DNA of 64,000 nucleotides from a virus (Duplodnaviria; Heunggongvirae; Uroviricota; Caudoviricetes): IMG/VR virus record IMGVR_UViG_3300028048_000050, positions 19,494 to 83,493 of that record; one strand, written 5' to 3'. The notes below the pieces were generated by a model. The model was not told where the DNA came from and ran no database searches. It saw nothing but the letters and a program-made list of their open reading frames with translations. This document shows, piece by piece, positions 43,318-64,000 of the stretch. Each line of letters opens with the position of its first letter. Position 1 is the first letter of the stretch. Made by a program: the position numbers and the translations under genes.

Positions 43318-43330
43318 GTTAGAAGACAAA

Positions 43331-45220: not shown

Positions 45221-45359
45221 TATCTGTCTCTGATTCAGAGTAAAGATCCATCATAATATATCCCATTCCTCCAAAGCTTGCTCAGGAGTTAATCCTGAAG
45301 CTAGTTCTTGACGAACTTCAGCTTCAAGATTATACTTCCTTGCTATTTGGACTGCTTCT

Positions 45360-45830: not shown

Positions 45831-45971
45831 ATTGTTTTTTGTTTTTAAAAGTTAATAATAAAATTATTTGTTATATGAATAAACTAGTGAAATATATCCA
45901 CATCATAGCACACAATGTGAATAATACACCCCAAAAGTAATCTTGGGTACGGTTTGATAATCTAAACTTTT

Positions 45972-46211
45972 TCATAATGGAGTTTGACAAGTTGAATCAT
46001 AACTATCCGCAATTATAGCAGATATTCTAAATTCTTTTATTGCATCTTGAGGAGATAGCTTGGGATATTTCAATAATAAATATTGAATACCCTTTTGTGT
46101 TTTTAAAAAATCATTACATTGAGCGTTGATTTCTTCATAAACCTGAGATATTGGCTTAGCCAACATATTAGGTTCCATTCTTGGAATGTTTTTTAAAAAA
46201 TCTTTTTTCAT
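45972..46211 (-). CDS. hypothetical protein
   Basis: 79-aa ORF. Confidence 0.3.
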   Translation of the reverse strand: MKKDFLKNIPRMEPNMLAKPISQVYEEINAQCNDFLKTQKGIQYLLLKYPKLSPQDAIKEFRISAIIADSYDSTCQTPL

Positions 46212-47389
46212 ATTGTTATTCGTTTTAATATTTCATATTGTTTAGTTTTAAAAATCTCTCCATCCACCCCTACATGGATGGAGAGCAAACAAACTAACAA
46301 TTTCTCCCACTTATTTATACTCGTTTCTGGGCTACCTATATAGTATTACACTATTATGGCAAATCTGGACTTATTAGAACCTCCAGTAATCATCAGTGAA
46401 ATTCCGAGTTTTCAAATTGTTATGTTTCAGATTGTTAATTAAAATTTGCCGTCTATTCCGAGCTGCCAACACGTTTGACTTATTTTACTTCTCGTTGTGT
46501 GCTGAGAATTACCTTAATCTTGTTCAAGGATTTTGTTTTAACTTTGTTTCCCTCACTACGAATTCCAAGATGTCACGTAAGAATGGATGATCTATTTATA
46601 CTCTATCATCTTCGAGCAATTTTTGGAATCAGACATCAACACTTACTAGTCTTTCATCCTACTTTTCGTGTTCGCCATGTGTGCAACGACCAACTGCCTC
46701 CTCCTAGCCATATGAACTCCACCATTCAGTTGGTAACGAATGAAGTTCGGCTCGCCTTAATTTAAACTTAAAACTGAAAAATTCATATTAAAAAAATTAA
46801 TCCTCTCACGATTTTGAGGGTTAAAGCCTAATATTTCGACAGAGCCTCCTCGGATGTAAATAGGTCATTAATATTATCTTCTCACATATTGAAGATCGAG
46901 CTTAACATTCTAATGACCTCTTTTAGGTAGTTAAGTCTACTTACGTCAATCGATAGTGCCAGCTATCAACGATACGGAACACAACATACTGGCATATATT
47001 GTGAACATTCGCTAAGTATTTTCATGTGCATTTTATCGCATGCTGCTTTGTTCGCCCTTAGCTTCTAAAGCCTTTTTCATCTGCTTACCTAGTACGCAGT
47101 CCTAGAGCTTAAGTATATTAAATATTTTACATCGGATATACCTCGATGTCACAACCTATAGATTGTGAATTGTACCGATTTCCCCTCGCTACCACAAGGT
47201 CAGAGCTTTTTATTTATACTCCCTTCTCTGATTATAGGAGTTTAAGATATAGTCATCGCCGCAGCGAAGAATACCAAACCAAGCATTAAAAGAATCCAGG
47301 TAATACCTGTATATTTCCAGGTATCTGGAGTTCTTGACCCTACAATGACAGCTACGGCAAAAATTGCCATAGCTATCAATACTAGAATA

Positions 47390-47653
47390 TTACCAACTTG
47401 CATACCTACAAAGACCTTTGTTATACAAATCTTTCAGGAATTCAGCAGTCTTATCCTGCTGTTCCTTATTCTGATATGTAATTGGCCACTCCCAGCAGCC
47501 AAAACTTGCAGAGATACGAGGTTGTGGTTCACAACCTACGATATTTTTACAGATATGCTCATAATGGTCTTGTTGACGACCCATACCCGTCCATGGATCG
47601 CAATCAATTTCAATCGTAGTCTTATACGGGAAGACCTTTTCATTTTCTTTCAT
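47390..47653 (-). CDS. hypothetical Cys/Trp-rich small protein
   Basis: 87-aa ORF. Confidence 0.35.
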   Translation of the reverse strand: MKENEKVFPYKTTIEIDCDPWTGMGRQQDHYEHICKNIVGCEPQPRISASFGCWEWPITYQNKEQQDKTAEFLKDLYNKGLCRYASW

Positions 47654-47894
47654 ACTGTTGTTTGTTTATTTACTTCAGTTAATAACTCTCTAGCTTGTCC
47701 AACTGCGTTTATAACAGCATAGCCATTATCTTTATGTGGCATGCTTGCATAAATAATAGCGGACATAACGCCTAACAATTCCACTTTAGGTGGAATAGGC
47801 AAAAGTTCCTCAGGATAATTATTATTCATATTGCTTTGTTTGTTTTGTTAAAAAGGTGTCCCACACTTTGTATAACGTGGTGGGACTTTACGTT

Positions 47895-48239
47895 TTATGC
47901 TATATTAAGTTTAGGCATATCCCATTGATTGATACCATGAGGATTTTGTTCAAACCCTTTGTATTCCCATTCCCAAGGATCCTCAGAAACTTCTCTCCAA
48001 GGCTGTGCAATACCATACTTTTTAGCTAACTTATTAGCGTGACGTTCAAAAGGAGATGTATGGATATACTTGCGTTGCATTTCTGGATATAACTTACAGA
48101 AATACTTATTAAAAAGTTCTCCAGCAATATCATTTTCTCCTTCAATGAAATCTGCACACAAAGTATGCATAATTTCTACTACTGTGTTAACTGCTTGCTC
48201 ATTAAGAGCAATAATTAATAATCTTTCTAATTGTCTCAT
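47895..48239 (-). CDS. hypothetical protein
   Basis: 114-aa ORF. Confidence 0.4.
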   Translation of the reverse strand: MRQLERLLIIALNEQAVNTVVEIMHTLCADFIEGENDIAGELFNKYFCKLYPEMQRKYIHTSPFERHANKLAKKYGIAQPWREVSEDPWEWEYKGFEQNPHGINQWDMPKLNIA

Positions 48240-48806
48240 AATTGTTAAGTTTATTTGTTTGTACGAATATATTTTTCGTTTCGTTCTGGCCTCATCAGCA
48301 AACCTTTTTTACGTCTTCCAGAATGACGGGAATTTTTAAGGATTTTAAATCCTTAGGATAATTCTCAACCAAATATTTTTTTAAAATTATAAAGGGTATT
48401 AGAATTAAATGGTTATACATTAGAATAATGTTACCAAACTTAAACTCGGTCAAAATCACCCTTTTTGAGATGATGTTGGTTTAAGTTTTGCAAGTTTGGG
48501 TGGGTTCGACGCCTGTGCCCGAGAGCATATCTCCCATAACAATTTTTTCAACAAATCATTATGTGAGAAACGTATTTTACCCACTAAACCCTTGTTATGA
48601 AGAAAGAAGACAGCTCATTCAAATCCCCTAAAATTTGAGTTGAACTGCCTTCATAATTCTCCACGGATAACACCTGGTCTGAATGAGAAATACATACTCT
48701 ATACCTATTTTATAAAAGGTTTCTGGAGCAACTTGTATTTCTCCTTCTTTAGAAAGTAGCTTAGTGGGAGATAGTAACCTCCCACGTAAGCATACTAAAC
48801 CGTTCA

Positions 48807-49373
48807 TCAAGCAGATGTCCAGTTAGCTGGCTTGTTCTCACCAACAAGACTCCACTTACCAATGTTGTTGTACTCAACATCCTTCTTAGTAGCCTTGTCA
48901 TTAGGAACACCGAAAGCACGAACAGGAACCTTGTCGTACTCTTCGCACTTAATAGTGCAGCCCTGAAGAGCCTTCATTGTCTCAGTCATGTCAGGATGAG
49001 CCTTACAATAATCGACAATGTCACCCGTTGGACGAACGATACGATCGCTTGTTACGTCCTTACCAGTCTCAGGATCAACTCGGAAAGCGAGCTTAGTCAG
49101 ACTGCTCGGGAAGAAGTTAACAATACGATTCTTTGAGGTGAGACACTTGATGTACTCAGCCACAACAGGCTTACCATCACGATCAACAACTGGCTGACCA
49201 CCACGCATAATACGCTGCTGCCAAATCTTGTAATCAGCACCTGTAGGAATTGTGAACTCCTCACCAGCCTCAATGTTGTTCAGCGTGTCGATTCTGAACG
49301 CTTTGCTGAACTTCTCAACTTCCTGCACATTGGAATTACCATTCTCAATGGCAAATGACTCTTGTAATGTCAT
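48807..49373 (-). CDS. hypothetical protein in the GC-rich island (start set at MTLQESF...)
   Basis: ORF with local GC of about 45%, compared with about 28% elsewhere. Confidence 0.45.
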   Translation of the reverse strand: MTLQESFAIENGNSNVQEVEKFSKAFRIDTLNNIEAGEEFTIPTGADYKIWQQRIMRGGQPVVDRDGKPVVAEYIKCLTSKNRIVNFFPSSLTKLAFRVDPETGKDVTSDRIVRPTGDIVDYCKAHPDMTETMKALQGCTIKCEEYDKVPVRAFGVPNDKATKKDVEYNNIGKWSLVGENKPANWTSA

Positions 49374-49476
49374 ACGCTTAAAAAATTTAAGTTTTGTCCC
49401 TTGAAAGGTGCCTGTAGTACACACCTTCCTTAGGACGATTTTGCTCTTTTTCTCTTGTTTACTACAGTAGTATAGA

Positions 49477-49935
49477 TTATAAAATCTCTACGTCTAACCA
49501 CTTCTCTGAGATGGACACACTATCAGAAGAACTTGAAGTGTACACACCTTTAAACTGATGCTCTTCATCCATCTCCTTCACACCATCCTCAGAATATCCA
49601 CGAGAGTAACGATCTGCTTTCTCCTGAGTAGAGAACCACTTTGGAGGATTAGCATACTTATACTGGACAGACACACGATCGGGATCATTTACCAGACTTA
49701 TACCGGTAATCTCGAGAATTGTCCAACCATTACGACTGTTACGATTAGTGAGATATTCCAAAGCAGCCTTCTCATCATTGATAGTAGCATCGGTAACAAT
49801 ACCATCAGCTAACTGCTTCAGAACTTCGTCACGACCACGCTCGATAATAACACTGAGACGATTAAGGAACAACTCCTGATCTTCAGCAAGTAAGCCTCGC
49901 AATACAAGCTGATTAATTTTTGAAACCTTTTTCAT
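49477..49935 (-). CDS. hypothetical protein in the GC-rich island
   Basis: 152-aa ORF. It has a long 5' leader carrying repeats of the GGCTTAGGTTT motif. Confidence 0.45.
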   Translation of the reverse strand: MKKVSKINQLVLRGLLAEDQELFLNRLSVIIERGRDEVLKQLADGIVTDATINDEKAALEYLTNRNSRNGWTILEITGISLVNDPDRVSVQYKYANPPKWFSTQEKADRYSRGYSEDGVKEMDEEHQFKGVYTSSSSDSVSISEKWLDVEIL

Positions 49936-50234
49936 TTTTAATTTCTCCTATTATTAAGTTTGTTTATGCCGCCAATACATGGCATACCATTGGTGACGTT
50001 ATTGGTTGTATGCCTACGGCTACATAGCCCTTTATACATTTGGCTTAGGTTTTTATAGGAAGGCAATTTTTCTTACTCCTTGCCCAAGGGAAGCCACTCT
50101 TTCGCATTGCGGACACCGTGGTTTTCGTCCATAGTAACATAGCCATTTATATAATTGGCTTAGGTTTAAAATATCCTCAAAGGATTAATAAAAGGTCAGC
50201 CCACCGTTAGGTGAGCCGACCGAAGAGAGACAGG

Positions 50235-50759
50235 CTATGCCTGGAACTCGATGGTGATAAACGGCGAGATGCGGTCGACCAACTTGCCTTTGTCATCCTT
50301 CGCGAATCCAGGGTTCTCTCGACAGATGAGAACTCTGGTGCCAAAGAAGGTGACGGCATGTTTGGCGACGCTTTCGACAGAGCCATTCAGCATAGCCGAG
50401 TCGTCAGTACGGCGCCCAAGTTTCAGGAGATGTTCTGTAAGAGCAGCCCTGAAATTGGAACCGTAGACGACCTTAGCCTCGCCTTTGGCATTGTAAAGAA
50501 CGTCCTTCTTGTGGAGAAGACGGTTCAAAGGCAAGTCTTCGCCGACAGAAGTGGTCAGAAGAATATTCTGAGCACTGTCAGCGTACTTGGTCTTTGAGAC
50601 CGAGCCGTCTTTACCGACTACCTCATAGGAGCCGAGTTTGTAACCTGTGACGGTGAACGTCACGTTATTCTGGAACACGCTCTGAGCGTGTCCAATGCGG
50701 AAGCCCTTGTTGGGGTCCGCAGGCGCTTCAACGAAGCGGATTTCTTGAACGTCTGCCAT
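50235..50759 (-). CDS. hypothetical protein in the GC-rich island (start set at MADVQEI...)
   Basis: ORF with a GC-rich codon bias. The antisense ORFs at 50211..50597 and 50251..50466 are rejected. Confidence 0.45.
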   Translation of the reverse strand: MADVQEIRFVEAPADPNKGFRIGHAQSVFQNNVTFTVTGYKLGSYEVVGKDGSVSKTKYADSAQNILLTTSVGEDLPLNRLLHKKDVLYNAKGEAKVVYGSNFRAALTEHLLKLGRRTDDSAMLNGSVESVAKHAVTFFGTRVLICRENPGFAKDDKGKLVDRISPFITIEFQA

Positions 50760-51140: not shown

Positions 51141-51784
51141 ATGCTAAATAATTTAATAAATAAAGGACTGAGGAATTAACCTCAGTCCAAGAGCCCTATC
51201 TTTGCTACCCTCTCTCCGAATTCCAGGGACCGTCACGGAGGAATGAGGAAGATGGAACTGAAACTATTTCAGTTCTACTTATCTCCTAAATATATAATAA
51301 TTCTTTAGATTTACTTCTCAGGATGAGAAGTGGTGGCTTAGGTTTTCATTTTCCCACGCGTGACCACAGGGGGAGCCGAGGGGTAGTGTACCCCCTCCCT
51401 CACAACAAAAAAAATTTCAAAAAAATTTTAGAAAAAATTTTAGAAAATAAAAACCCTTATAAAAAATATAGGGGGGGGAATATAAAAATAACTTTCAAAA
51501 AATAAAAAAAAATAAAAAATTTTTATAGAGGTGTTAAACTCGAAAGGAAAAATTCAAGCCGGAAGGCCAATTAATTATAGTTATTTAATTATAGTATTAA
51601 TTATAGTTAGTGTCGAATTTTTTAATAGACCCATAGGTATTTTTTAACTAACCCATATTTATTTTTTAATTTACCCGTTGGATTTTTTAATTTAGTCCTA
51701 AAATTTTGAAATTTTCATAGAGGTGGATATTTTTAATATAAATAAAATTATAAAAATATGTAGTATGAATAGAATAAATAGTTT
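51141..51784. promoter_or_regulatory. divergent intergenic control region between the minus-strand block and the plus-strand late block: GGCTTAGGTTT motif (51335-51345), GC hairpin GAGGGG-tagtgtac-CCCCTC (51378-51397), G8 run, three TTAATTATAGT repeats (51569-51610), four direct repeats of about 21 bp NNNNATTTTTTAA(C/T)TA(A/G)CCC (51613-51698)
   Basis: No credible ORF. It is very AT-rich apart from the GC hairpin. The iteron-like direct repeats were seen directly in the sequence. Confidence 0.5.
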
Positions 51785-52321
51785 GTGATACTTCCAAATG
51801 AGGTAGTAGATTGTGAAGAAATTAGTCCAAAAACTTTGGTAGTTTATTGTGCTATAAAACAACATATGAATAAAGATACTTTAGAAGCTTTTCCTGGAAT
51901 TAAAACTATTGCTAAAGAAGCGGGATGTGGAGAAGATGCTGTAAGAAAAGCAATTAAAGAATTGGTAGATAATAAGTTTATACAACAAATAATAAGACCA
52001 GGTCAAAGTACAATTTATAAATTCTCTACAACAAAAAGTTTTGAACCTTTCTCATATGATTTTTTAAAAGATGATAAAATAAAGATTAGAGAAAAAGCAT
52101 ACCTTATGATGAATCAAAAAGATATGTATAATAAAGGAACTGGAATAGGAACAATTTCTTTCTCTACAAAAGAAGTGGCAAAAAGAACTAGAATGTCTGT
52201 TCCTACAGTATTAGCTTGTGAAAACACTTTAATAAAAGCTGGATATTTATCTAAACCTGATTCAAAATTAATAGATACAGAATCTGGAACACATCAAGAT
52301 TTAAGAATGTATTTATTATAG
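51785..52321 (+). CDS. putative winged-helix / HTH DNA-binding protein (regulator or replication-initiator-like)
   Basis: 178-aa ORF. It is the first gene in the plus direction after the control region and has no TAG codon. Confidence 0.4.
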   Translation: MILPNEVVDCEEISPKTLVVYCAIKQHMNKDTLEAFPGIKTIAKEAGCGEDAVRKAIKELVDNKFIQQIIRPGQSTIYKFSTTKSFEPFSYDFLKDDKIKIREKAYLMMNQKDMYNKGTGIGTISFSTKEVAKRTRMSVPTVLACENTLIKAGYLSKPDSKLIDTESGTHQDLRMYLL

Positions 52322-52525
52322 TTATATAATATGGCTGCTGTCACATATAGATAGACACAATAGAATACAGAGGATATACAAGAATTACAAAAAGATAATG
52401 CCATAATGAAAAAACAAATTGAAATATTAACCAGAGCTATATTTAAAGAAGAAAAAACTCCAGAAATTAAGATTTAACATTTTTTAAATTTGTCTTTTTA
52501 AAATAACAAATATATTAGTATTGTT

Positions 52526-52891
52526 ATGAAACAGGAAGAAATATTAAAAGCTCTCATAGAAGAGCTATTCGCAATGGACACACTACATCAAGAATATCAA
52601 GATAATGATTCTCATTTTGTAGTAGATTCAACAAGAGAAGGAAATACTTTAACTATTAAAGTACAACTTTTAGAAAATAAAGATAAGAAAGAATTTGAAA
52701 ATTGGTTACAACAAGTTGATGATGACCTTTTCCAAGAAGTTTTAGAGGAACTTGCAGAGAGAGAAGGTCTTACAGATTTAGACTCTCTTTACAAGACTGA
52801 AAATTACCAAAAAGTAATTGACAAAGTAAAAGCTAAAACTAAAGAAATAGCTGCTCGTAAGATTAAAAATCTTAAAAAGTTACTTTCTTAA
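52526..52891 (+). CDS. acidic hypothetical protein
   Basis: 121-aa ORF. Confidence 0.4.
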   Translation: MKQEEILKALIEELFAMDTLHQEYQDNDSHFVVDSTREGNTLTIKVQLLENKDKKEFENWLQQVDDDLFQEVLEELAEREGLTDLDSLYKTENYQKVIDKVKAKTKEIAARKIKNLKKLLS

Positions 52892-52907
52892 TAAGTAACT
52901 AGAGATT

Positions 52908-52995
52908 GCTCTGTGGTGTAATGGTTTAGCACAGCGGACTCTAAATCCGTAGCCCTCTGAAGGCGTAAGTGTGGGTTCGAATCCTACCAGGGCAA
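52908..52995 (+). tRNA. amber suppressor tRNA, anticodon CUA, class II (long variable arm; closest in arm sequences to this window's own tRNA-Leu(UAA))
   Basis: Acceptor TGCTCTG/CAGGGCA. D-arm GTG-TAATGGTTTAG-CAC. Anticodon arm GCGGA-CTCTAAA-TCCGT. Variable arm AGCCCTCTGAAGGCGTAA. T-arm GTGGG-TTCGAAT-CCTAC. Confidence 0.6.
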
Positions 52996-53196
52996 CAACA
53001 TTAATACAATTTTAGAATGGATACAAAATTATTTAAAGATTTATATCAAGCAAATATTGATGAAATTAAAGCTATAGAACAATTATCTATAGAACATAAT
53101 ATGTTAGATAATGGATATTACTTAAACTGGAAAGATAATTTAAATAAACTATCTATAGATTTAGATAGAGAATAATAATTAAATTTTAATGGGTGT

Positions 53197-53228
53197 AAAA
53201 AATTAAAGGCTCCTCAGGAAACTGAAGA
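53197..53228 (+). terminator. rho-independent terminator-like hairpin followed by a T-run
   Basis: aaaggctcctcaggaaactgaagagccttttttt. Confidence 0.45.
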
Positions 53229-53244
53229 GCCTTTTTTTGTTGTT

Positions 53245-53921
53245 GGTTTATAATTTAATGCTATATCAAATCCAGTCTAAAGAGTATTAGTAAGTGCGTT
53301 AGTAATATAATTAGTTTTTCGCTATTTTACTTGTTCATCTAAAAACTTTTTATAATTGTCATTAAATTCTTTCTATTTTGCTGCTATAGGAGCTTGTGCT
53401 AAATAATTAACATGATTTTTTACAATGGAACCTCCATTAGCATTAGGATTATCTGGATCAAAATGTAATTTAGACATTATTTTATCATAATTACTCTAAA
53501 CCTCATTTTCCTATTGTTGATTCTACATATACTACAAAGCAGTATTTGTCATAATATCTGAATAATTATTATTATAAGAAGATTCAGAATTACTTCCTCC
53601 TAACATAGAACTTATTCCACTAGCTGCTAATTTACCCCAATCACTGTTTAAAAAATTTCCAACTTTTCCTAAACTATTTGATATCCAATTAGTTTTAGTT
53701 CCATCAGAAGCTTTAATAATACCGCCTTCTTTATGCTTCCATTTTCTAGCATTAGCAGCAAATGTAGCTTTCTTTCTTATCTTTGGGTTAGAACTATTCT
53801 TACCTCTCTAAATACATTCATCTGTAACATTTCCTCCACACCATTTAGTAAATGTTCCTTTCTAAGACTCTTTGATATGGATTTTATGTCCTTTTTTAAA
53901 AATTTTTACGACGTCGTTCAT
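53245..53921 (-). CDS. minus-strand gene(s) with multiple in-frame TAG codons (hypothetical; possibly two genes)
   Basis: Hand translation starting at the ATG at 53921 gives MNDVVKIFKKGHKIHIKES-TAG-KGTFTKWCGGNVTDECI-TAG-RGKNSSNPKIRKK.... It continues through MSKLHFDPDNPNANGG... (second ATG at 53477) with further TAGs. The boundaries are uncertain. Confidence 0.3.
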
Positions 53922-54050
53922 AATTTAAAATATTTTTTAAGCTTAAAATTTAATTTTTTGTTATGTTAAATATTATTTATTTTGACATTACTAAATATAC
54001 TAATACCTTTGGATAAATACAAATATTTTTATATTACTACTAATTAAAAA

Positions 54051-54728
54051 ATGAATTTAAATTATTTTAACAGTGTGTGGAGAATGATTAACAGAATACA
54101 TCCAGAAACAAGGAGTATAATTATTATTTTACTATTTGGTTGGATTCTTTATTCTCAGATAACTGGAGTAACTGGTCAACAAATACATGACAGGTTTGAA
54201 CAAGAGATTGTTAGTAATAAAAAAGCTGAACAATACTCTATGGAAACCGGAGTTGAAATAAACCAGTAGGTCCAAGAAATAGCAGAAATAGATAAGGACG
54301 CTTTTGATGTATTACTTTTAAATTATCATAATAATACTCAAAGTTTGCAAGGTTATAAATATTTGTATTTATCTTGTCTCACAGAAGCTCCAAGATCATT
54401 AGATACTCCTACTTTACAAAAGTAGTGGAATAAATTAGATTATATATATTATGCAGATGAATTAGCTAAACTTCATAGACAAAGCTTTGTTTCTTTCTCT
54501 GATATAGAACAAATGGGATTGTAGTTACCTAAAATGTATAGATTAGTAAAAGCTAGTGATGCAAAAGCAATATCTTTCTTTACAATTGAAGGACATGATA
54601 ATCCAATAGGTTTAATTGTAGTATTTTATAGAGAGCCAAAGGTTTATGATAAACTTTATGCAGGGAGAATTCTTCCACACATTTAGAAACTAGCTTTGTT
54701 ATTAGACTATGAAAAAGCATAGAAATGA
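54051..54728 (+). CDS. hypothetical membrane protein with five in-frame TAG codons (holin-like position upstream of the endolysin)
   Basis: N-terminal transmembrane segment IIIILLFGWILYSQITGVTG. The frame stays open through TAGs to the TGA at 54726 and overlaps the amidase start as ATGA. Confidence 0.4.
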
Positions 54729-55339
54729 TTACAATTATTTTAGGTACAGCTCATTAGAAAAGCATCTAGGGTAAAAGTTCTCCAGATGGAAAATTTAAAG
54801 AATATAAATATTCTAGAGAAATATGCAAGGCTGTATGTGATATTCTACAAAGTATGGGTTATAGAACTATAATTGACATTGAAGATGACGACCTAGGACT
54901 ATCCCAATCTAGAGAATTATCACTAAGATGTAGTATTGTTAATGAATTAGTGAAACAGTATAAAAATTGTATATATGTTTCAATACATGTGAACGCAGCT
55001 GCTTCAGATGGTAAGTGGCATAATGCAACAGGTTGGGAAGTTTATACATCGGTTGGAAAAACAAAATCAGATGAACTTGCAACCTGTTTATATAATGCAG
55101 CAAAGTATAATGCAGAAAATAAGAAAATGCGTACCGATTACTCAGACGGAGATCCAGATAAAGAAGCTCATTTATATGTTCTTAAACATACTAATTGTCC
55201 TGCGGTATTAACCGAGAACTTCTTTTAGGATAACCAAAAAGATGTAGATTATTTAACTAGTGATGAAGGTTTTCATGCAATAGTTAGGCTTCATGTTGAA
55301 GGAATATTAAATTATATAGTAATAGAAGATAAATCTTAA
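54725..55339 (+). CDS. N-acetylmuramoyl-L-alanine amidase (Amidase_3 family endolysin) containing three in-frame TAG codons
   Basis: Hand translation gives MITIILGTAH-TAG-KAS-TAG-GKSSPDG...CIYVSIHVNAAASDGKWHNATGWEVYTS...NCPAVLTENFF-TAG-DNQKD.... This matches the Amidase_3 motifs SIHANA, GxEVYY and PAVLvElgFlsNpeD. The ORF track sees only 54854..55228. Confidence 0.65.
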
Positions 55340-55352
55340 AAATTTATGTTAT

Positions 55353-56264
55353 ATGGAAATGAATTATGATAAAATTAATGGTTCAGTAGGGTTTAGAGAA
55401 GCTGACCATTATTATGGAAATTTAAACGACCCTTCTATCAAGTATATTTCTGTTACTACTTTAATAGAAAAGTATGGAAAAGAATTTGATAGAGAATTTG
55501 TTAGTGCATATAAAGCACTAGAAAAGATAATGGATCCAGCAGACTGGAAAAAAGAAAAAGGTGGTATTTGGAAAAACCATAAGATTCCTGATGATTTCTT
55601 AGATGTATATAATATAACTAAAGAAGAGTTGAATAAAGTACAACAAGATATTTTAGATGATTGGGATAATACCAATAGAATAGCTTGTGAACGTGGAACT
55701 AAGATTCATGCTCAATTAGAGAATTCTTTTTATAATATAGGTAGTAATATTACTTTAAAGAAATTTGGAATCGGAGGAAAATTTGAATGTAAAAAAGATT
55801 ATAGTGAATTAGATTTAGAATATGGAGTTTATCCAGAATATCTAATATACTATGATAATGCTAAAATAGATTTACATCTTGCTGGACAAATAGATCTTAT
55901 AGTAAAGAATGGTAATGATATTTATATTATAGACCATAAGACTAATAAGAAGATAGATTTAAAAGGATTTTATAACAGTGCTAATCGTTCAACGGACAAA
56001 ATGAAATATCCATTAGGACATTTAGATGAATGTAATTTTAATCATTATCAATTACAATTATCTACCTATGCCTGGATGCTTCAGAAACTTAATCCAAAAT
56101 TTGTTATAAAAGATTTGATTCTTAATCACTATGATCATGATGGAAAGAATACTTTATATCATTGTTCATATTTAAAAGATGATGTTGAAAAAATGCTTAA
56201 GCACTATGCTAAGCAACAAAAACTTGAAAAACAAAAAGCTAAATATGCAAGAATACAGTATTGA
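55353..56264 (+). CDS. PD-(D/E)XK nuclease of the RecB/Cas4/YqaJ-like family
   Basis: 303-aa ORF. Motifs GQIDLIV, IIDHKTNKK and QLQLSTYAWM (a QxxxY motif). Confidence 0.5.
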   Translation: MEMNYDKINGSVGFREADHYYGNLNDPSIKYISVTTLIEKYGKEFDREFVSAYKALEKIMDPADWKKEKGGIWKNHKIPDDFLDVYNITKEELNKVQQDILDDWDNTNRIACERGTKIHAQLENSFYNIGSNITLKKFGIGGKFECKKDYSELDLEYGVYPEYLIYYDNAKIDLHLAGQIDLIVKNGNDIYIIDHKTNKKIDLKGFYNSANRSTDKMKYPLGHLDECNFNHYQLQLSTYAWMLQKLNPKFVIKDLILNHYDHDGKNTLYHCSYLKDDVEKMLKHYAKQQKLEKQKAKYARIQY

Positions 56265-56550
56265 TGAACGTAGAGCTATATGTTAGAAATGTCCTATCTT
56301 TAGTCCAGCTAGAGCTATATGTAATCCTAATTTATATTTAAATCCTGATACTAACGAAGTAAGTACCAGTCCTAAGGCAGGATATATTAGAGGATGTAAT
56401 TGCCACGTTTTGATAAAGATGAGGAATTTACATAATCATTGTATAGCGGGAAAATGGTAATAAAATATAAAGATACAAAAGGAGTTATTTATTATAAAAC
56501 ATTTGATGAATATAATAAATACTTAAAAGAGTTAGAAGCTCTTAAATAGA

Positions 56551-56766
56551 ATGAATCTCTTTACGAAGTTATTGAATATTATTGTTGGTAACTGGAGAAA
56601 TTTAACCGGTTATACTTCAGATGAACAAAAAAGAAGACTAGATATATGTAACAAATGTGAACACAAAATGAAATATATGGGTTCATATATATGTGATCAA
56701 TGCGGCTGTATATTAAAATCAAAAGCTAGTGTTGAATCAGAAAAATGTTTAATGAATAAATGGTAA
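56551..56766 (+). CDS. small zinc-ribbon protein
   Basis: 71 aa with CNKCEH...CDQCGC. Confidence 0.35.
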   Translation: MNLFTKLLNIIVGNWRNLTGYTSDEQKRRLDICNKCEHKMKYMGSYICDQCGCILKSKASVESEKCLMNKW

Positions 56767-56767
56767 T

Positions 56768-57352
56768 ATGGAACATCCAATTTTAAGCGAGAATGAAAAA
56801 ATAGCTATGAGAATGGCTGGTGAAAGTACAAGTAGAATTATGACTTTAGATGGTAGAAGTGCAGAAGAAATTATTGAAGAAAGAAATGCTAAAAAGGTTA
56901 ATGAAGAAATTGATTCTTTTGCAGAGAAATTTGAAAAGCACTCAACTAATTTAACAGAGTTTGCTGATAAGGTAAATAAGAATGTTGAAAACATTGAAAT
57001 TATGCCTATTGGTAATTATGTTCTTTGTAAACAATTTGATGAAAATCCTTTCCAAAGAATTGTACGTGATTCTAAGTCTGGACTTATTCTTGATTTAGGT
57101 GGAATGAAACCTGAATATAAGAATACAGACAATGGACAAATTGAAGAAGAAGAACAATTTATAAAGGTTGGTGTTATCCAAGAAGTTGGTCCAGAATGTA
57201 AATGGTGTAAACCTGGAGATACAATTTTCTACACTAAGCCTAGTGCAGTACCTGTTCCTTTCTATAAGCAAGGTCTACAGCTTGTATGTGAAAATAGAGT
57301 TCTTGCAGTTGTTAATGAAGGTTTAACTGAAAGATTTAGTAAATGTAAATAA
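56768..57352 (+). CDS. protein with a C-terminal GroES/Cpn10-like co-chaperonin domain (gp31-like)
   Basis: 194-aa ORF. The segments IMPIGNYVLCKQFDENP...SGLILD...KVGVIQEVGPEC...KPGDTIFY...RVLAVV follow the GroES fold pattern. Confidence 0.4.
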   Translation: MEHPILSENEKIAMRMAGESTSRIMTLDGRSAEEIIEERNAKKVNEEIDSFAEKFEKHSTNLTEFADKVNKNVENIEIMPIGNYVLCKQFDENPFQRIVRDSKSGLILDLGGMKPEYKNTDNGQIEEEEQFIKVGVIQEVGPECKWCKPGDTIFYTKPSAVPVPFYKQGLQLVCENRVLAVVNEGLTERFSKCK

Positions 57353-57354
57353 TT

Positions 57355-57573
57355 ATGGATGAAAAGATTTATTTTGTTCCTGGTTAGAAGGTAACCCTTC
57401 GCCAGGACATACCAAATAAACCTATTATGTTGGTACATAGAGTTGAACGCTCTATAATTAGAAATGAAGATAAGAATGCCTTACTTAAAGGAGTAAAGGT
57501 AAGATGGTTTACAGAAAACGGTTTCTTACAAGAAGCTGTATTCTCAACAAAAGATTTAATCTTAGTCGATTAA
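57355..57573 (+). CDS. small hypothetical protein with one in-frame TAG
   Basis: MDEKIYFVPG-TAG-KVTLRQDIPNKPIMLVHRVERSIIRNEDKNALLKGVKVRWFTENGFLQEAVFSTKDLILVD-TAA. Confidence 0.4.
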
Positions 57574-57575
57574 CT

Positions 57576-58355
57576 ATGGACACAAAAAAGAGTAAAAATT
57601 TAAAGAATGATTTTTATAATTGGTGTGAAAGAAATAATAAACAACCTAAATCTTAGGAAGAGGTTCAAGATTTATTAGTGACTTTTATAACTGAAAATAA
57701 AGAGAAATATCCAGAAGAATATGCTAAAATTCAAACTGCATAGAAAAAAACAACAAGAGCTCTTCATGGTGCTAAATTAAATTATTTTAAATCTTTAAAA
57801 CATCAATGTGCTGAAGATGAAGAAGTAGTTTATTACAAGAAAGGTGGTTCTGTAACTTGTGGTTGTAAAAAGAAAGAACAAGGAGGAGAAGTTCCTTCAG
57901 CTAAAGATGGTGCTGTAGCAAAATTTAAGAATAGAAAGAATATTCCAGCTCCTCAACAACAAATAAATCCTAATGATACTATTCATGTAAATGGACAAAT
58001 TAAAAGTTTAACTAATGAACCTATTAAAGATAAGAACAATACTTATAAACCTCTAACTCCAGAAGAATATAAAAAACTTAAGGATAAGGATAAGAATAGA
58101 GTGGATGAAAAAGATGCCGCTCGTGGAAGACAAGTACATAAATGTGGAGGTAAAGTAAAGAAAGGAGAAGACGGACTTCTTCCTATAAAGAATCCTAAAG
58201 GAAAACCTTCTAAGAATATTAATAGAGGAGGAACTAAAAGTAAACTTCCTGTTCAATCTAAAGGTTCAAAAATAAATAAAGATTGTGGAGGTTCTTCTAT
58301 TGTTTCTCAATTTAAGAAACATTTCTGGGGAGGAAAACTTGGACTTAAAAAATAA
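57576..58355 (+). CDS. lysine-rich basic protein with two in-frame TAGs (virion-internal or DNA-binding candidate)
   Basis: The frame is continuous from the ATG at 57576 through TAGs at about 57654 and 57741 to the TAA. The C-terminal part is the ORF at 58101..58355. Confidence 0.45.
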
Positions 58356-58387
58356 GAAATAAAAAAAAATAAAATGTTAATGTAAAT

Positions 58388-58963
58388 ATGAATATATGGG
58401 ATTATAATTAGAAAACTGGAAGAGCACAATTATTAACTGCTGATTTAGTTTTAATTGATGAATTTAAAAAATTATTAGAACCTTCCAGAAATAAATGTAA
58501 TGAGGATCCTTCTGGACTAGAACACATTAGAGCTGATAGAGAGTTTACTTATATATATTTAGCAATAGATTGGAAATCTCCATATGCTAATTATAGCAAT
58601 TAGGAAAAACATGAAGCTGCTTTAAAAGATGCTCATATTTCAGAAGAAGAATGGAATAACCCTGAATTTCGTGCTGCTTGTAGAAAGTATGTATCAATTC
58701 AAGATTCCAATAGATATGTAAGATTACTTCAAGCTGCTTAGGAGGTAACTGATAAGATTATTGATTATTTCCATAATGTGGATTTACAAGAACAAGATGA
58801 ACAAGGTAAATATCTTGTTAAAGTTAAAGATGTTCAAGCTGCTATGAAAGAGGCTGCTGATCAAATTGAAACTTTGAAACAAATTGAATCTCTTGTTAAG
58901 AAAGAAGTTATGGAGCAAAGTCAAATACGTGGTGGAGCTGTTGAAGGATTTATGCCTGATTAA
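58388..58963 (+). CDS. hypothetical protein with three in-frame TAGs (possible small terminase subunit, by position only)
   Basis: MNIWDYN-TAG-KTGRAQLLTADL...ANYSN-TAG-EKHEAALKD...LQAA-TAG-EVTDKII... then the ORF at 58778..58963. Confidence 0.4.
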
Positions 58964-61239
58964 TGGAGGAAATTAAAAAGAAAAGAGGTCGTCCACGTAA
59001 GAATCCTATACCAGAAGTTCCTGAGGAAGTTTAGTCTATAATTACTGAGGTTCAACAAAAACAAGAGGAACTTCAACAGCAAATAGAAGAAATAAAGCCT
59101 TAGGTTGTAGAACACAAAGAAGGTGAATGGGATGTCAAAATAGGAGACCCGATACCTTACTTTGATAAAAGACTTTCCTATGAATTAACTGGATATAGAC
59201 CTATTACAGAAACAGAAGGATTAGATTTTGATCCTTCTTGGTTTACTGAAGCTAGAGAAATATTCTTAAAGACAGAACAATATTGTTCTTATTATCCAGG
59301 CTCAAAACTTTATAGAGATTTCTGGAATGAAGAATATAGAAGATGTAAGGAAGGAATGACAGTTAATGGTTATACTATTACTGGATTTAACTATTACTTT
59401 CTTAATTATTATCAATTACCTAATACAGAACAAGATGTAGCCGGTGATAGCCGTTCTATTATATTTCCAAGATTCTTTGTATATCAATACGAATTCTTTC
59501 ATTACTTTGAATTATGTAGAAAGTTAAGAAAGAATATGACTGTAATGAAAAACAGAGGATGTGGATTTTCTGAGATACATGCTTCTATATTTGATAATTT
59601 CTTTAACTGTTTTAAAAATAGTATATGTCTTCTTACTGCTTTCGATGATAACTATGTTAAAAAAACTCTTGATAAAATTAATGCAGGAATAACTTTTACT
59701 GATGATAATACTCAAGGAGGAATGTTAAAACTTAGACAAGTTATTAATACAGCAACTAAGAAAAGAGCTTCTCACTATAAAGTAGTAAATGGTCAAAAAA
59801 TTGAAACAGGTTTCATGTCCCAAATTGAAGGAATTGTTGTAGATAAGGATAGAAAGATGAGAGGTGACCGTGTAGGTTTCTTATTTCTTGAAGAATCAGG
59901 TTCTAATCCTATACTTGAACGTTCCTTTATTAAAGCAGAAGAACTTGTAACTGTTGGTGGTAATAAAATTGGTATTATAGCAGCAGTAGGAACAGGTGGT
60001 GATGCCGGTCCTAATCTTGAAGGTTTAAGAAAAGTATATTATAATCCTAAAATGTTCCAAGTGCTTCCATTTAAACATAATTATACAGAAGATGGAGATT
60101 GGGTTGAAACTGCTTATTTTATACCTGCATATATTTCAATGAATAACTCAAAATTTGTTGGAAGTCGTGGTGAATATCTCATGGAAAAACAAAGAGAACA
60201 TTATGAACAAAGACGTGCAGATATAACTGATCCTAAAACTTTATTAGACCATAAAGCAGAGCAATGTTTCACAGCTGAAGAAGCCTTTGCAGCGGAAGGT
60301 GTAAATAAATTTAATAAACTTAAAATAGCTGAACAAATTATAGCTATTAGAATTAAAAAACAAGCTCCTCCTATTCAAAGAGGATATATGGAGTTTGTAT
60401 ATTCTGGTCCAGAAAGAAAAAGAGAAAATATTATCGGAGTTAGATTTAAACCTAATCCGAATGGGCCTGTTAGAATATTAGAAGAACCTTTATGGGAAGA
60501 CGGAAGTCCTATAATCCAAAATCTTTATGTAGCAGGAATTGACGGTATTGATATTGGACAAGCAGAAACTTCTAAAGAAACTAGAGATCCTTCTAAATTT
60601 TGTACTATGATAAAACGTAGAGTACATGGAATGAAGGAACCTATGTATGTGGCATATTATTTAGATAGACCTAATGATATTAGAGAAGCATACAAACAAA
60701 CAATGGCTTTATTATGGTATTATCAAGCCAAAGCTAATATAGAAGCAACTCGTTTGTCTGTTCTTACATACGCTCGTGATAATAAGTTTGCACATTTCTT
60801 TATGAAACGTCCTAGAGCTTGTTATGGAGGAGACGAAAGAAGAAGAACTAATGGACAATACGGTACTACAGCTACTACAGCCATGATTGAACATGGCACT
60901 GATTTAGTTGCTTCGTATGTAGAAGATTACTGTCATAATATATGGTTTATAGAATTTTTAGAATAGTTAAATCTTTATACTGATGAAAATAAAGGTAAAT
61001 TTGATATGGTTGCAGCGTGTCAAATGGCAGAAGTTGGAGATGAAGAGTTAAGTGATATTATTCCAAGAGAATATAAACCAGTTTCTAAGGAATTTAAAGA
61101 TATAGGATATTACACCGACGAAAATGGACATAAAAAATTTGGTGTAATACCAAAACAAAATGAAAACTCTGTTAGAGGACATATAAATACAGGATATGTC
61201 GAGGGTTATAATATAACAAGTAATTCAAGATATAGATGA
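58963..61239 (+). CDS. terminase large subunit-like protein (about 758 codons, three in-frame TAGs)
   Basis: The ATG at 58963 overlaps the upstream TAA. The N-terminus is MEEIKKKRGRPRKNPIPEVPEEV-TAG-..., with a second TAG at 59101. The body is the ORF at 59356..60966 (Walker-like VMKNRGCGFSE and LLTAFDD, plus an RNase-H-like nuclease motif LYVAGIDGIDIGQAETSKETRDPS). A TAG at 60964 joins it in frame to 61006..61239, which ends at a TGA. Confidence 0.5.
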
Positions 61240-61535
61240 ATGATATGGAAAAAGCCATTTTAGATATGATAGAGTGTAAATACAAATGTAAATATACTGG
61301 ACATATTAAAGTGACTAAATTAGGGAAGGGTGGGACTGGATATAAAGTTGTATTAGACTTTGACAATCTAGACAAACCTATATTACAAATATCTGCAGAT
61401 TTAAATGCAGAAGATTTTTTAAAATTTGTTGAACAAGAACTCGTCTCTAGACAATTACATAGAGTAAAATTCTTTAGGGGAGTTAAAATTTATCCGGAAG
61501 ATGAAGAAAGAAGAACTTGTTAGCAAAACTAATTT
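61236..61535 (+). CDS. small hypothetical protein (terminal TAG followed by Q-N-TAA)
   Basis: The ORF at 61236..61523 plus a TAG-readthrough of two codons. Confidence 0.35.
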
Positions 61536-63678
61536 AGCTATTTCTGAACTTGTTTAGGAAAAGACAGCTATATAGAAAGCATATAACTATTATAACTGTA
61601 AACGAGATAAGGAATAGTTTAAATACTTAGAAGAGAACTTTGGTATTGGGTAGCCAACAGCGGTTGAGTTTATTCCTTTAATCAGGAAACATATAGACGC
61701 TTTAGTAGGAGAATATTTAGATGTTCCAATTCTTCCAAAGGTTTCTTGTAAAGATACTGAAACTATTAATAATATATTTAGAGAGAAACAAGTAAAGATT
61801 GCTACAGAATGTTATAATCTCCTACAAAATAATCTCAAAAATAATCTCTTACGAATACTAGGTAGCAAAGATATGTAGGATCTAAATATAAAAGAATAGT
61901 TGGATAAACTTATAGAAGATATTAATGAAAACTTTATTTCGGAATATGAAATAGCTGGATAGAATGTTATAGAATATATAATTCAATCTAGAAATATTGA
62001 TTTAGTAACTAAATTAAAACAATTATTTATTGATTTATTAGTTTCTGGATTTACTTTTTATAGAGTTCTTCCTTCTTCTTCTGGACATAATATAAACATT
62101 TAGTGTTTAAATCCATTAGATGTTTTTCCAGATTTAAATTATGATTCTCCTTATATTAATGAATCATATAGAATAGTAGTTAGAAGTTTCTTAACTCGTA
62201 ACTAGATTCTTAGTAAATATGGAAAGGATTTATCTAAAGAAGACATTTCTAAAATAGAAGAAATGTGGACAGACTCTTTAGAAACTACTGGTTCTTATTT
62301 TGTAAGAAGTTGTAACCCAGATGGTACTCCTGCAACTGATGGTATAAGAGCTGGTGAAGAAGTTACTCCAGGTTTTCCTGAATATAGTTATTATAAAAGA
62401 GATCTTATTCCTGTATATGAAGTTGAATGGATCGAAACAGATAAGAAATTTGTAGAACAAAGATATTCTACTGTAAGAATTGGTTCTGAAATTTATATAC
62501 TAAAAGGAATAGATGAAAATGTAGTAAGAACTAAAGATGCACCAAATAAAGCAACACTTAGTGTTAATGGTGTATGGTTTAATAATAGAGGTAGAGAACC
62601 TTTCTCTATGGTTCAAAAATGTATGGTACTTCAAGACCGTTATGACCTATTACATTTTTATAGAGATAATTTAATAGCTCAATCTGGTTCTGTTGGTGAT
62701 TTTATTAATTTACCTACTTTACCAACTATTCTAGGAGATGATTTATCAGAAAGATTAATGAAGTGGAAAGCTTATAAGAAACAAGGTATGGCTTTAATTG
62801 ATACTTCTCAAGAAGGTCAAATAGGAACAGGTCAAGCTCCTTTAACTACTATATATAATGGGTATGACGATACTGTTAAAGTTCAAGCTATTCAAGCTAT
62901 TCAATTAGCTATTGATTCTGTAGAGCAAACAACTTCTTCAATCACTGGAGTATTTAGAGAAAGATTAAACGGAATATAGCAACGTGATGCTGTAACTAAT
63001 ATCCAAACAGGTATTAATAATTCATTTATAGTAACTAAACAATGGCATTATCAAATGGATTTAATAACAAGAGAAATTTTATTAGATTCTTTAAATTGTG
63101 CTAAAATAGTTTACAAGGACGGATTAACTGGAACATTAATATTAGGTAATAAGTTACAAAAAATATTTACTGCTTTACCAAAATATTTTACAGTTACAGA
63201 TCACGATATACATATAATTACTTCATCAGAAGTAGTAAAAGAAATGGAACAAATTAAGGCTGTTGTTCCAGAATTTATAAAGGGAGGAATTGTTTCTGCT
63301 GATATATTAATGGATATTATGACTGCTAAGAGTTTATCAGAAATGAAACTAAAAGTTAATAAAGCTATTAAGAAATAGAAAGCAGAAAATAATTAGATAC
63401 AACAACTTACATAGTAGGTTGAAGAATTACAGAATAATTTACAGCAAGCTCAACAACAACTTCAACAAGCATAGAGTAAAGTTGAATCTCTTAATGAAGC
63501 TAAACTTCAAATAGAAAGAGAAAAGAATCAAATGCAATTCTAGCTTGATGATTATAAGAATAAGACTGATAGAACATTTAAGGAAAGTCAAGCTGAAAAT
63601 GATACTAAACGTACTGAAATTGAGCTTATGTAGTTATATGATGGAAATCCTTATAATGATGAAGTTAAAAACGTATGA
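61501..63678 (+). CDS. portal-like large structural protein (about 725 codons with about 17 in-frame TAGs; the call is by position and size only)
   Basis: One frame runs from the ATG at 61501 (MKKEELVSKTNLAISELV-TAG-EKTAI...) through the ORFs at 62263..62979 and 63055..63378 and a Gln-rich C-terminal coiled-coil to the TGA at 63676. The only stops in the frame are TAGs. Confidence 0.45.
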
Positions 63679-63704
63679 ACTGCAAAAGTGTAATAACTTA
63701 TGAT

Positions 63705-64000
63705 ATGGATTGTAACACTATTATACATGATGTAAACTTTGATGAAAATTATGTATATATTTATGTGTTACAATTAAATAAATCTAATGAAATAATAACT
63801 TAGGTTGCTAAAAGAGAAAATATAGAGGATTAGGTTGTATTTGATATAGGTCAAGATGGATTTTATACTTTAATTACAGTAAAAGTTCCAAGAGATCCTA
63901 GTAAAGAATATTATTATAGAGACGGAAAAGTTTATCATATAAATGAAGAAGTTGATTTAGCTCTATTGTTAGAACTTAATCCTGAAGTTTCAGGACTTAT
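63705..64000 (+). CDS. hypothetical protein, 3' end cut by the window edge, with in-frame TAGs
   Basis: MDCNTIIHDVNFDENYVYIYVLQLNKSNEIIT-TAG-VAKRENIED-TAG-VVFDIGQDGFYTLITVKVPRDPSKEYYYRDGKVYHINEEVDLALLLELNPEVSGL.... Confidence 0.4.

Follow-up and report, generated by a model that had tools for sequence, protein, structure and literature searches.

A 64,000-nucleotide stretch of a tailed-phage genome (Caudoviricetes; IMG/VR record IMGVR_UViG_3300028048_000050, positions 19,494 to 83,493; hereafter the window, to which all positions refer) contains a block of late genes in which the amber codon TAG is used as a sense codon, together with a tRNA gene with the anticodon CUA that would read it. With a probability of roughly 0.85 for the reading as a whole, the window belongs to a crAss-like phage of about 179 kb with two coding regimes and a glutamine-type tRNA(CUA), in which the suppressor would set the timing of late translation and an extra arm of the tRNA would have a role of its own. 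In large crAss-like phages, late-gene recoding of TAG to glutamine with a phage-encoded suppressor tRNA has been described before. What is probably new here is the second arm of the suppressor tRNA, which carries the cognate glutamine anticodon, and the class of tRNAs built in this way appears to be undescribed.

The late block is read with TAG as a sense codon

Under the standard code, plus-strand open reading frames (ORFs) of at least 100 amino acids (aa) cover a fraction of 0.50 of the region from 51 to 64 kb, and with TAG as a sense codon the coverage rises to 0.84. A preliminary description of this DNA had claimed that the plus-strand block after 51.8 kb can be read correctly only in the latter way. 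This was borne out: standard-code calls break up the genes, and an explanation of the late block under the standard code fails.

Three genes with recognizable functions illustrate the recoding. The N-acetylmuramoyl-L-alanine amidase (endolysin) gene (54725..55339, plus strand) has in-frame TAGs at 54755, 54767 and 55226 and the stop codon TAA; its product matches Pfam Amidase_3 (5e-21) over residues 4-195 of 204 as well as a PHROG endolysin family (1.3e-41), and its TAGs are kept in close relatives. The gene for the terminase large subunit (58963..61239, plus strand; 758 aa) has TAGs at 59032, 59101 and 60964 and ends in TGA, and residues 99-705 of its product match PHROG 6681, terminase large subunit, at 1.7e-66. 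The portal protein gene (61501..63678, plus strand; 725 aa; PHROG 6547, 7e-45) contains 17 TAGs and also ends in TGA. Each of the three profile matches spans TAG positions, and the TAG counts agree with the 3, 3 and about 17 reported in the preliminary description. Its broader claim, that some of the genes use TAG as a sense codon and that the phage encodes a suppressor tRNA(CUA), is supported by the intact ORFs, by the domain matches across TAGs and by the ARAGORN call of the tRNA presented below.

Positions 51501-64000 of the window are identical to a public contig of 179,005 bp (ENA ERZ27252073 k141_1012300), whose stored gene calls already treat TAG as sense (code 15) and yield the same proteins as the TAG-sense ORFs. 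A megablast search with 51-64 kb returned no near-identical record from the phage collection. The 22 late-strand genes of the public contig (7141 codons) contain 71 TAG, 227 CAA and 16 CAG codons, and the late-block rate is 9.9 TAGs per 1000 codons; TAG makes up about 23% of the glutamine codons in the recoded genes. None of the 22 late-strand genes ends in TAG, all of them being terminated by TAA or TGA. The fragmentation of the late genes in standard-code ORF calling could also be expected if these genes were pseudogenes, or if the TAGs were assembly or sequencing errors in a genome that uses the standard code throughout. Such an explanation is hardly credible, however, in view of the uniform TAA or TGA ends of all 22 genes, the identical public contig on record, the matching tRNA(CUA) encoded by the phage, and the identical TAG positions kept in many independent contigs, where they alternate specifically with CAA/CAG. 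For annotation, the late block must be called with code 15.

TAG is predicted to encode glutamine

The codon opposite each window TAG was read in 80 related IMG/VR loci, which were found via the terminase and whose late proteins were aligned by tblastn. In relatives at least 85% identical, TAG stood opposite the window TAGs in 69% and CAA/CAG in 18% of cases; in the reverse view, the TAGs of these relatives faced Q in 48% and TAG in 48% of cases in the window. In 19 relatives without in-frame TAG in their late genes, Gln stood opposite 43.6% of the window TAGs, compared with a background of 3.8% (11.6-fold), whereas Tyr (1.7%) and Leu (0.9%) were depleted and Ser was outside the twelve commonest residues. 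The possibility, raised in the preliminary description, that TAGs fall into alignment gaps of homologues was not borne out, as this applied to just 3.4% of the window TAG positions against TAG-free homologues.

Individual sites show the same exchange. Portal sites 39, 154 and 711 held TAG or Gln exclusively across 64-78 relatives, and at terminase site 668, of 79 relatives 31 had TAG, 27 had Q and 21 had E. A further late gene (54051..54728, plus strand; 225 aa, with an N-terminal hydrophobic segment, five TAGs and an overlap with the amidase gene start) has Q or TAG at position 212 in 25 of 26 relatives. Because the window TAGs align with TAG, CAA/CAG or Gln in relatives, TAG is, on the alignment evidence, a glutamine codon in the recoded genes of the window, as in translation table 15. 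Glutamine at TAG has been demonstrated in crAss-like phages by mass spectrometry (PMC9523058), and Gln was inserted by 28 of 29 phage tRNA(CUA) in an E. coli extract (PMC12636597).

The shape of the suppressor tRNA would by itself suggest that TAG is decoded as Tyr, Leu or Ser: it is 90 nt long, has a variable region of 20 nt, and combines A73 with CUA like the classical tRNA-Tyr amber suppressor. In bacteria, a long variable arm is the mark of Tyr, Leu and Ser tRNAs. Portal site 19, which is mostly Tyr or Phe in relatives, points in the same direction. Nevertheless, decoding as one of these three amino acids is very improbable, and the alignment evidence, with the enrichment of Gln and the scarcity of Tyr, Leu and Ser opposite TAG, rejects it. 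Furthermore, close relatives with an ordinary short tRNA(CUA) have the same TAG sites, swapped with CAA, and the U1:A72 pair and 4-bp class I D arm of the window tRNA are tRNA-Gln-like.

The suppressor tRNA carries a second, glutamine-type anticodon loop

ARAGORN identified 33 tRNA genes in the window, 32 on the minus strand (10.6 to 43.7 kb) and one on the plus strand. The latter is the suppressor tRNA(CUA) (52907..52996, 90 nt), which folds into a cloverleaf with a Gln-type body and an extra arm. The Rfam tRNA model recovered it at 52907-52995 with 58.8 bits and aligned the CUA arm as the anticodon arm, in agreement with the tRNA(CUA) that had been proposed at 52908-52995. Its slot, directly after the homologue of the ORF at 52526-52891, is syntenic with that of the 73-75 nt tRNA(CUA) of relatives.

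The identity set of E. coli glutaminyl-tRNA synthetase (GlnRS) includes a weak first pair U1:A72, G2:C71 and G10. By sequence and fold, the body of the window tRNA has these features of a GlnRS substrate (U1:A72, G2:C71 and G10), together with A73, a 4-bp D stem and the D arm GGUGUAAUGGU..AGCACA, which differs little from the D arm of the window's own tRNA-Gln(UUG). The C:G pair at 3:70 and the discriminator A73 also match this tRNA-Gln(UUG). The anticodon YUG is lacking in the suppressor anticodon arm, where CUA keeps U35 and loses G36, and CUG is present in the extra arm only.

The anticodon arm (52934..52950, plus strand) has the stem GCGGA/UCCGU and the loop CUCUAAA, with the anticodon CUA at 52941-52943. 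The extra arm in the variable region (52952..52964, plus strand) has the stem GCC/GGC and the 7-nt loop CUCUGAA, with CUG at 52957-52959, which is how the anticodon loop of a tRNA-Gln is built (C32, U33, CUG, A37, A38). The extra hairpin is preceded by the anticodon arm and followed by a variable loop of five bases that looks normal, and it brings the variable region to 20 nt in total. A long variable arm of this size is a property of class II tRNAs, but the D arm is not of that class, as its 4-bp stem is tRNA-Gln-like, and Ser, Leu and Tyr are not enriched opposite TAG.

After in-silico deletion of the 17-nt CUA arm, ARAGORN called the remainder a 73-nt tRNA-Gln(CUG). Seen from this side, 52907-52996 could be a tRNA-Gln(CUG) that has acquired a hairpin ahead of its anticodon arm and does not read UAG, suppression being left to a second tRNA(CUA) at 35403-35480 or to the host; the remainder is a normal tRNA, and its 5-nt variable loop is like that of relatives. 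We regard this as improbable, since ARAGORN and Rfam both put the CUA arm at the anticodon position, the stem of this arm, at 5 bp, is canonical and its loop is CU-CUA-AA, the gene occupies the syntenic slot of the relatives' ordinary tRNA(CUA), and the alternative tRNA at 35403-35480 is structurally weak.

A 58-nt core of the suppressor tRNA that includes the extra arm is identical in loci L020, L023, L068, L081 and L082, and this identity extends to phages with terminases only 46-55% identical to that of the window. The distant phages that share the core have other, compensated acceptor stems, and the acceptor stem of the window tRNA (UGCUCUG/CAGGGCA) resembles that of the close relative L002 (1593-1666). 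The pattern suggests that the tRNA core may have been exchanged between distantly related phages by gene conversion.

Cognate anticodon motifs recur in long suppressor tRNAs

A pattern scan of IMG/VR in which only the CUA loop and the T loop were fixed found 39 loci, and together with the loci collected earlier these gave 29 distinct long tRNA(CUA). The motif YUGA was present in the extra region of 27 of the 29, compared with 9 of 96 other long phage tRNAs, which comprised Leu, Ser, Tyr and others. Around the same loop motif, these extra arms had ten or more different stems of varied length, and some variants (L092, L096 and L118) carried UUG, the other Gln anticodon, instead of CUG. An analogous scan for opal suppressors yielded 22 distinct long tRNA(UCA) with Trp-like bodies, 21 of which contained UCCAA in the extra arm, compared with 0 of 125 other long tRNAs; the extra loop was usually CUCCAAA or GUCCAAA, which corresponds to the anticodon loop of tRNA-Trp (CCA). 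As controls, UCCAA occurred in none of the CUA set and in none of the 96 other long phage tRNAs, and YUGA in none of the UCA set. Among the collected long tRNAs, none had the reversed order with the cognate arm first and the suppressor arm second.

When the suppressor arm was deleted in silico, ARAGORN called a tRNA-Gln (CUG or UUG) in 17 of the 29 long tRNA(CUA), the window's included, and a tRNA-Trp(CCA) in 11 of the 22 long tRNA(UCA). By a crude test based on flanking coding density, TAG was recoded at 13 of 21 tRNA(CUA) loci and TGA at 5, with no clear call at 3, and at the 22 tRNA(UCA) loci TGA was recoded at 11 and TAG at 1, with no clear call at 10. The anticodon of the first arm therefore usually fits the recoded stop, with matches in 13 of 18 (CUA) and 11 of 12 (UCA) clear calls. 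For all its crudeness, the former figure also speaks against a tRNA-Gln(CUG) at 52907-52996 that would not read UAG.

Two side observations were made among the collected loci. Large phage contigs at loci L085, L093, L095, L106, L107 and L119 encode two tRNA(CUA) in tandem with 5 nt between them, one short and Gln-like, the other long and two-armed. At locus L120 (5587-5674), a long tRNA(CAU) repeats its anticodon triplet in the extra-arm loop, CAUAA; the case is isolated and may be due to chance.

A possible role of the extra arm

GlnRS and tryptophanyl-tRNA synthetase (TrpRS) are class I enzymes that depend strongly on the anticodon, and in E. coli the changes from CUG to CUA and from CCA to UCA remove identity nucleotides. 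At somewhat less than even odds, we tentatively propose that some phage suppressor tRNAs are two-headed, with a stop-reading arm and, in the variable-arm position, a cognate anticodon loop (YUG-A for Gln, CCA-A for Trp) that would serve synthetase recognition or provide a dual anticodon. Judged by its sequence, the window tRNA 52907-52996 is a member of this two-headed class. Its extra arm would be a copy of the cognate Gln anticodon stem-loop (CUCUGAA), and an arm of this kind may keep the tRNA recognizable to GlnRS/TrpRS or to other isoacceptor-specific enzymes after the change of the anticodon, which in the window tRNA was from CUG to CUA. Alternatively, either arm might stack under the D stem, in which case one tRNA would present both anticodons and serve a normal and a stop codon.

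The main rival to this proposal is that the extra arm was left behind as a relic when the anticodon arm was duplicated in tandem, or is a stabilizing hairpin, and contributes neither to identity nor to decoding. With CUCUAAA in one arm and CUCUGAA in the other, the loops are a single base apart, as a duplication would predict, and most related phages have short suppressors without the arm. A relic of this kind seems unlikely, although it deserves serious weight, because the loop motif is constant over at least ten variants with differing stem sequence and length, because the Gln anticodon UUG replaces CUG in some of the variants, because the independent opal-suppressor family holds the Trp anticodon loop in the same place, and because the 58-nt core is identical across phages with widely differing terminases.

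Several points weigh against a functional role of the arm. The census sequences are mutually related, so that the Fisher test values for the enrichment of YUGA (1.7e-17) and UCCAA (1.5e-24) overstate independence and are indicative only. In the unbiased set of terminase-matched loci, 16 distinct tRNA(CUA) were short and 4 were long, and most relatives are without the extra arm. Moreover, the variable arm normally points away from the tRNA face bound by class I synthetases, and the extra stem of the window tRNA has only 3 bp; binding of the extra loop in the anticodon pocket would therefore need a non-canonical geometry.

How anticodon-reading host synthetases charge a phage tRNA with a stop-reading anticodon is an open issue in the recoding literature, and so is the question of why reassignments are made only to Gln and Trp. 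If the two-headed proposal is true, a built-in cognate anticodon loop would be a simple natural answer to the charging problem and, if it works, a principle on which suppressor tRNAs for genetic code expansion and nonsense-suppression therapy could be engineered. A published description of an extra arm with the cognate anticodon was not found in literature that was incompletely covered, with most subscription journals outside, and the novelty of the arm is for this reason probable rather than certain.

Early genes avoid TAG, with exceptions

The early and replication block occupies the minus strand (587..50759) with about 32 tRNA genes, and its long genes are TAG-free. It encodes a DnaB-like helicase, a DEAD/SNF2-type helicase, a Sak4-like protein, an AAA ATPase, an SPFH protein and an acetyltransferase. 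TAG is absent from the eight longest minus-strand ORFs (3315 codons), among them those of the two helicases, the AAA ATPase and the SPFH protein, even when the ORFs are delimited by TAA and TGA alone; at the late-gene rate of 9.9 per 1000, about 33 TAGs would be expected in these codons. The 72 standard minus-strand ORFs end in TAA (45), TGA (20) or TAG (7). For six of the seven TAG ends, a TAA or TGA comes within the next 1-13 codons; the seventh lies inside a recoded gene at 15564-16301. The replication genes and the tRNA array of the minus strand thus avoid TAG and are readable under the standard code.

The preliminary description had held that long minus-strand ORFs contain no TAG. This stands for the eight longest ones, but four other minus-strand genes hold TAGs. 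A conserved gene next to the suppressor locus (53214..53921, minus strand; 235 aa) has nine in-frame TAGs, at which relatives carry TAG, Q, N or R. The other three lie in the early block on the minus strand, namely a GIY-YIG homing-type endonuclease gene (26247..26882) with five in-frame TAGs, a PD-(D/E)XK_5 endonuclease gene (9497..9967) with three, and a putative ORF of 245 aa (15564..16301) with seven. The Pfam matches of the two endonucleases each extend across two TAGs (GIY-YIG, 6.2e-13, residues 1-91; PDDEXK_5, 1.4e-29, residues 10-143). No significant similarity was detected among the products of 53214-53921, 15564-16301 and 57576-58355 in a comparison for paralogy. The early/late split in TAG usage is real, yet it does not strictly follow strand or position relative to the tRNA.

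As a side observation, CAG accounts for 36% (119/335) of CAA plus CAG in the early genes (587-50759) and for 7% (16/243) in the late genes (51758-64000 together with L083), where TAG (71) appears to replace it.

Timing as a possible use of the recoding

In the model of late-gene recoding, genes with TAG become translatable only after the suppressor is made (bioRxiv 10.1101/2021.08.26.457843). The early/late gene split of the window would fit such a timing hypothesis. Here, tRNA 52907-52996 would be charged with glutamine by the host GlnRS, the charged tRNA(CUA) would outcompete release factor 1 at UAG, and the endolysin, terminase, portal and homing endonucleases would be produced at full length only after the suppressor has accumulated.

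The arrangement of the genes gives this hypothesis partial support. The preliminary description had seen the suppressor placed ahead of the TAG-containing genes and had taken this layout as favouring regulation. The lysis and packaging genes do lie 3' of the tRNA, and the early/late split is in favour, but a gene with six TAGs (51758-52477) lies 5' of the tRNA and TAG genes also occur in the early block. Two findings weigh against a simple order of events. The tRNA's own unit opens with the six-TAG gene, which itself needs the suppressor, and the tRNA array of the early strand includes a second tRNA(CUA), albeit a weak one; because of these two, the layout of tRNA first and TAG genes after is not clean. 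A scan for sigma-70-type promoters near the tRNA stayed at chance level, with 18 sites where 17 were expected, Bacteroidota-type and phage-polymerase promoters being outside the scan.

The recoding might also be real and have no part in timing. It could have arisen by a neutral ratchet, in which an AT-rich genome with TAG stops already rare captured a suppressor, or it could serve other ends, such as the exclusion of competing phages, harm to host translation or defence evasion. The rarity of TAG as an early-gene stop, where it is always backed by TAA/TGA, would suit such an origin, as would the TAGs in the gene upstream of the tRNA and in early-block genes and the retention of an unused tRNA(UCA), as in Zeta crAss-like phages, for which an anti-host role has been proposed (PMC12386605). 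We consider the absence of a timing role doubtful though far from negligible, given the strength of the split, with 0 TAGs in the 3315 codons of long early genes as against 9.9 per 1000 in late genes, and given that the TAGs cluster in lysis, packaging and homing-endonuclease genes, as the timing model predicts (10.1101/2021.08.26.457843).

The suppressor locus and the remaining late genes

The first gene of the tRNA unit is a replication-initiator-like gene (51758..52477, plus strand; 239 aa) with six in-frame TAGs. Its product matches Pfam HTH_36 (5.7e-16) and PHROG replication initiation, and the public gene call is identical (239 aa). Its TAGs fall into two groups of three, one within the first 8 codons and the other close to the C-terminus, and homologues align through the TAG positions. 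The first three are at codons 2, 5 and 8 after the ATG (51758-51785), and under the standard code an ORF runs from a GTG at 51785 to the TAG at 52319. It is conceivable, if speculative, that the product of the gene is shorter when the suppressor is missing and longer when it is present.

Two conserved ORFs without TAG flank the tRNA immediately on the plus strand, one of 121 aa on the 5' side (52526..52891) and one of 52 aa on the 3' side (53017..53175). A G+C-rich, terminator-like hairpin with flanking T runs (53205..53234) lies between convergent genes; it closes the unit of replication-initiator-like gene, 121-aa ORF, tRNA and 52-aa ORF, and is common to the convergent minus-strand gene. 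The order of the unit, including the hairpin, is kept in close relatives. Just upstream of the replication-initiator-like gene, three iteron-like direct repeats of 22 nt (51617..51688) sit in a divergent intergenic region of 1 kb (50.8-51.75 kb), and the GC skew switches sign at 50-52 kb. The repeats and the skew switch together suggest a likely replication origin. Pfam and PHROG scans of about 40 window ORFs, which represent 64 kb of the 179 kb, revealed no release factor, synthetase or amidotransferase.

The other genes of the late block, all on the plus strand, differ in their TAG content. Downstream of the amidase gene lie a PD-(D/E)XK exonuclease gene identified by profile scans (55353..56264, no TAG), an ORF with one TAG (56245-56460), an ORF with none (56551-56766), a GroES-like ORF with none (56768-57352), an ORF with one TAG (57355-57573), an ORF with two (57576-58355) and an ORF of 191 aa with three (58388..58963). 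An ORF of 98 aa with one TAG (61236..61532) stands between the terminase and portal genes. The next late gene (63675..64000) is present with its start only, as it leaves the window; it has two TAGs in the window and seven in the full gene of 210 aa.

Other tRNA genes in the window

The second, putative tRNA(CUA) (35403..35480, minus strand; 78 nt, G1:C72), called by ARAGORN and scored at 38.3 bits by Rfam, has an anticodon stem that is extended and mismatched, and its loop of 8 nt contains UUCUAGG. Because its homologue at locus L240 (3508-3586) has UUCUGGG and thus CUG, it can be described as an amber form derived from Gln(CUG) within an odd tRNA family. If functional, it weakens any simple timing argument. 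This tRNA was missed in the preliminary description, as was a well-formed tRNA(UCA) of the opal suppressor type (14724..14797, minus strand; 74 nt, Rfam 61 bits), which has C33 instead of U33 and no extra arm. The idea that TGA might be a sense codon, which came from this tRNA(UCA), was rejected: coverage of the plus-strand block was unchanged, with only a few codons added at gene ends, and no sign of TGA sense codons was seen in the window. Unused suppressors are known in Zeta crAss-like phages (PMC12386605). A phage tRNA-Gln(UUG) for the standard Gln codons was called by ARAGORN at 28772..28843 (minus strand).

Several further tRNA-like elements were observed on the minus strand. At 43322-43390, a tRNA-Gln-like body (U1, D arm AGUGUAAUUGGUAGCACA) has a GAAA tetraloop on a 5-bp stem in place of the anticodon loop; Rfam scores it as a tRNA with 39 bits, and ARAGORN gives a 2-base 'anticodon'. 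A Trp-like tRNA at 35557-35627, beside the gene at 36019-36810, has a loop of just 5 nt (CACAA), and the syntenic tRNA has CCA in L241 (5249-5320) and L244 (5154-5227) and CUA in L245 (5148-5221); by sequence comparison, this locus appears to be a hotspot of anticodon change. Rfam tRNA matches without an ARAGORN call fall into two size ranges, 110-153 nt (34102-34211, 35015-35129 and 30758-30910) and 54-76 nt (33550-33625, 14289-14364 and 34574-34627), and the three longer ones may be tRNA genes with insertions or introns.

Comparison with known systems

The terminase and portal proteins are homologous to those of crAss-like phages (PHROG 6681 and 6547). In tblastn searches with the terminase, crAss-like phages showed 25-30% identity and two unannotated human-gut phage contigs 44-47%. 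IMG/VR relatives with 93-98% terminase identity are on contigs of up to 183 kb, and more distant ones on contigs of up to about 190 kb. From the large genome, the approximately 33 tRNAs and the presence of CUA and UCA suppressors with one stop recoded, we infer that the phage belongs to the Zeta/Epsilon crAss-like group, descriptions of which match the genome, the tRNA array and both suppressors (PMC10136315, PMC12386605).

The window shares many features with code-15 crAss-like phages (Yutin et al. 2021 via PMC10136315; Borges et al., 10.1101/2021.08.26.457843; Peters et al., PMC9523058; PMC12386605). A suppressor tRNA(CUA) of their own is common among code-15 phages, though some have none. 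In the window as in these phages, the genes form two blocks of opposite orientation, the replication genes are free of TAG, and the lysis, packaging and structural genes use TAG for Gln. A large tRNA array is likewise shared, with 33 tRNAs called by ARAGORN in the window. They also have in common CUA and UCA suppressors with one stop recoded, early TAG ends backed by TAA/TGA, and contigs of about 180 kb. The window differs in the Gln-anticodon-like extra arm of its suppressor, of which no mention was found in the accessible parts of these sources, and in a terminase at most 44-47% identical to those of deposited phages. Agate phages also have recoded homing endonucleases in early regions, but for TGA (10.1101/2021.08.26.457843). 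The 'code change module' of Jade phages, composed of a suppressor tRNA, TrpRS and RF1 (10.1101/2021.08.26.457843), resembles the window in that the suppressor stands in a short unit upstream of recoded lysis and late genes. In contrast to that module, the scanned window ORFs include no synthetase or release factor, and the first gene of the window unit holds TAGs.

With regard to the tRNA itself, class II tRNAs (Leu, Ser, Tyr and Sec) and allo-tRNAs (PMC5389517) also have a long extra arm between the anticodon and T arms. The window tRNA differs from them by its class I-like 4-bp D arm, by ordinary 7/5 acceptor/T stems, by the YUGA extra loop, seen in 9 of 96 other long phage tRNAs, and by alignments that point to Gln. 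The E. coli supE tRNA-Gln (CUG to CUA) and the ordinary phage tRNA(CUA) of 73-75 nt share with it the Gln-type body (U1:A72, G2:C71, G10) and the anticodon CUA. Their variable loop has 4-5 nt, whereas the window tRNA has in its place a 20-nt hairpin region that echoes the cognate anticodon loop.

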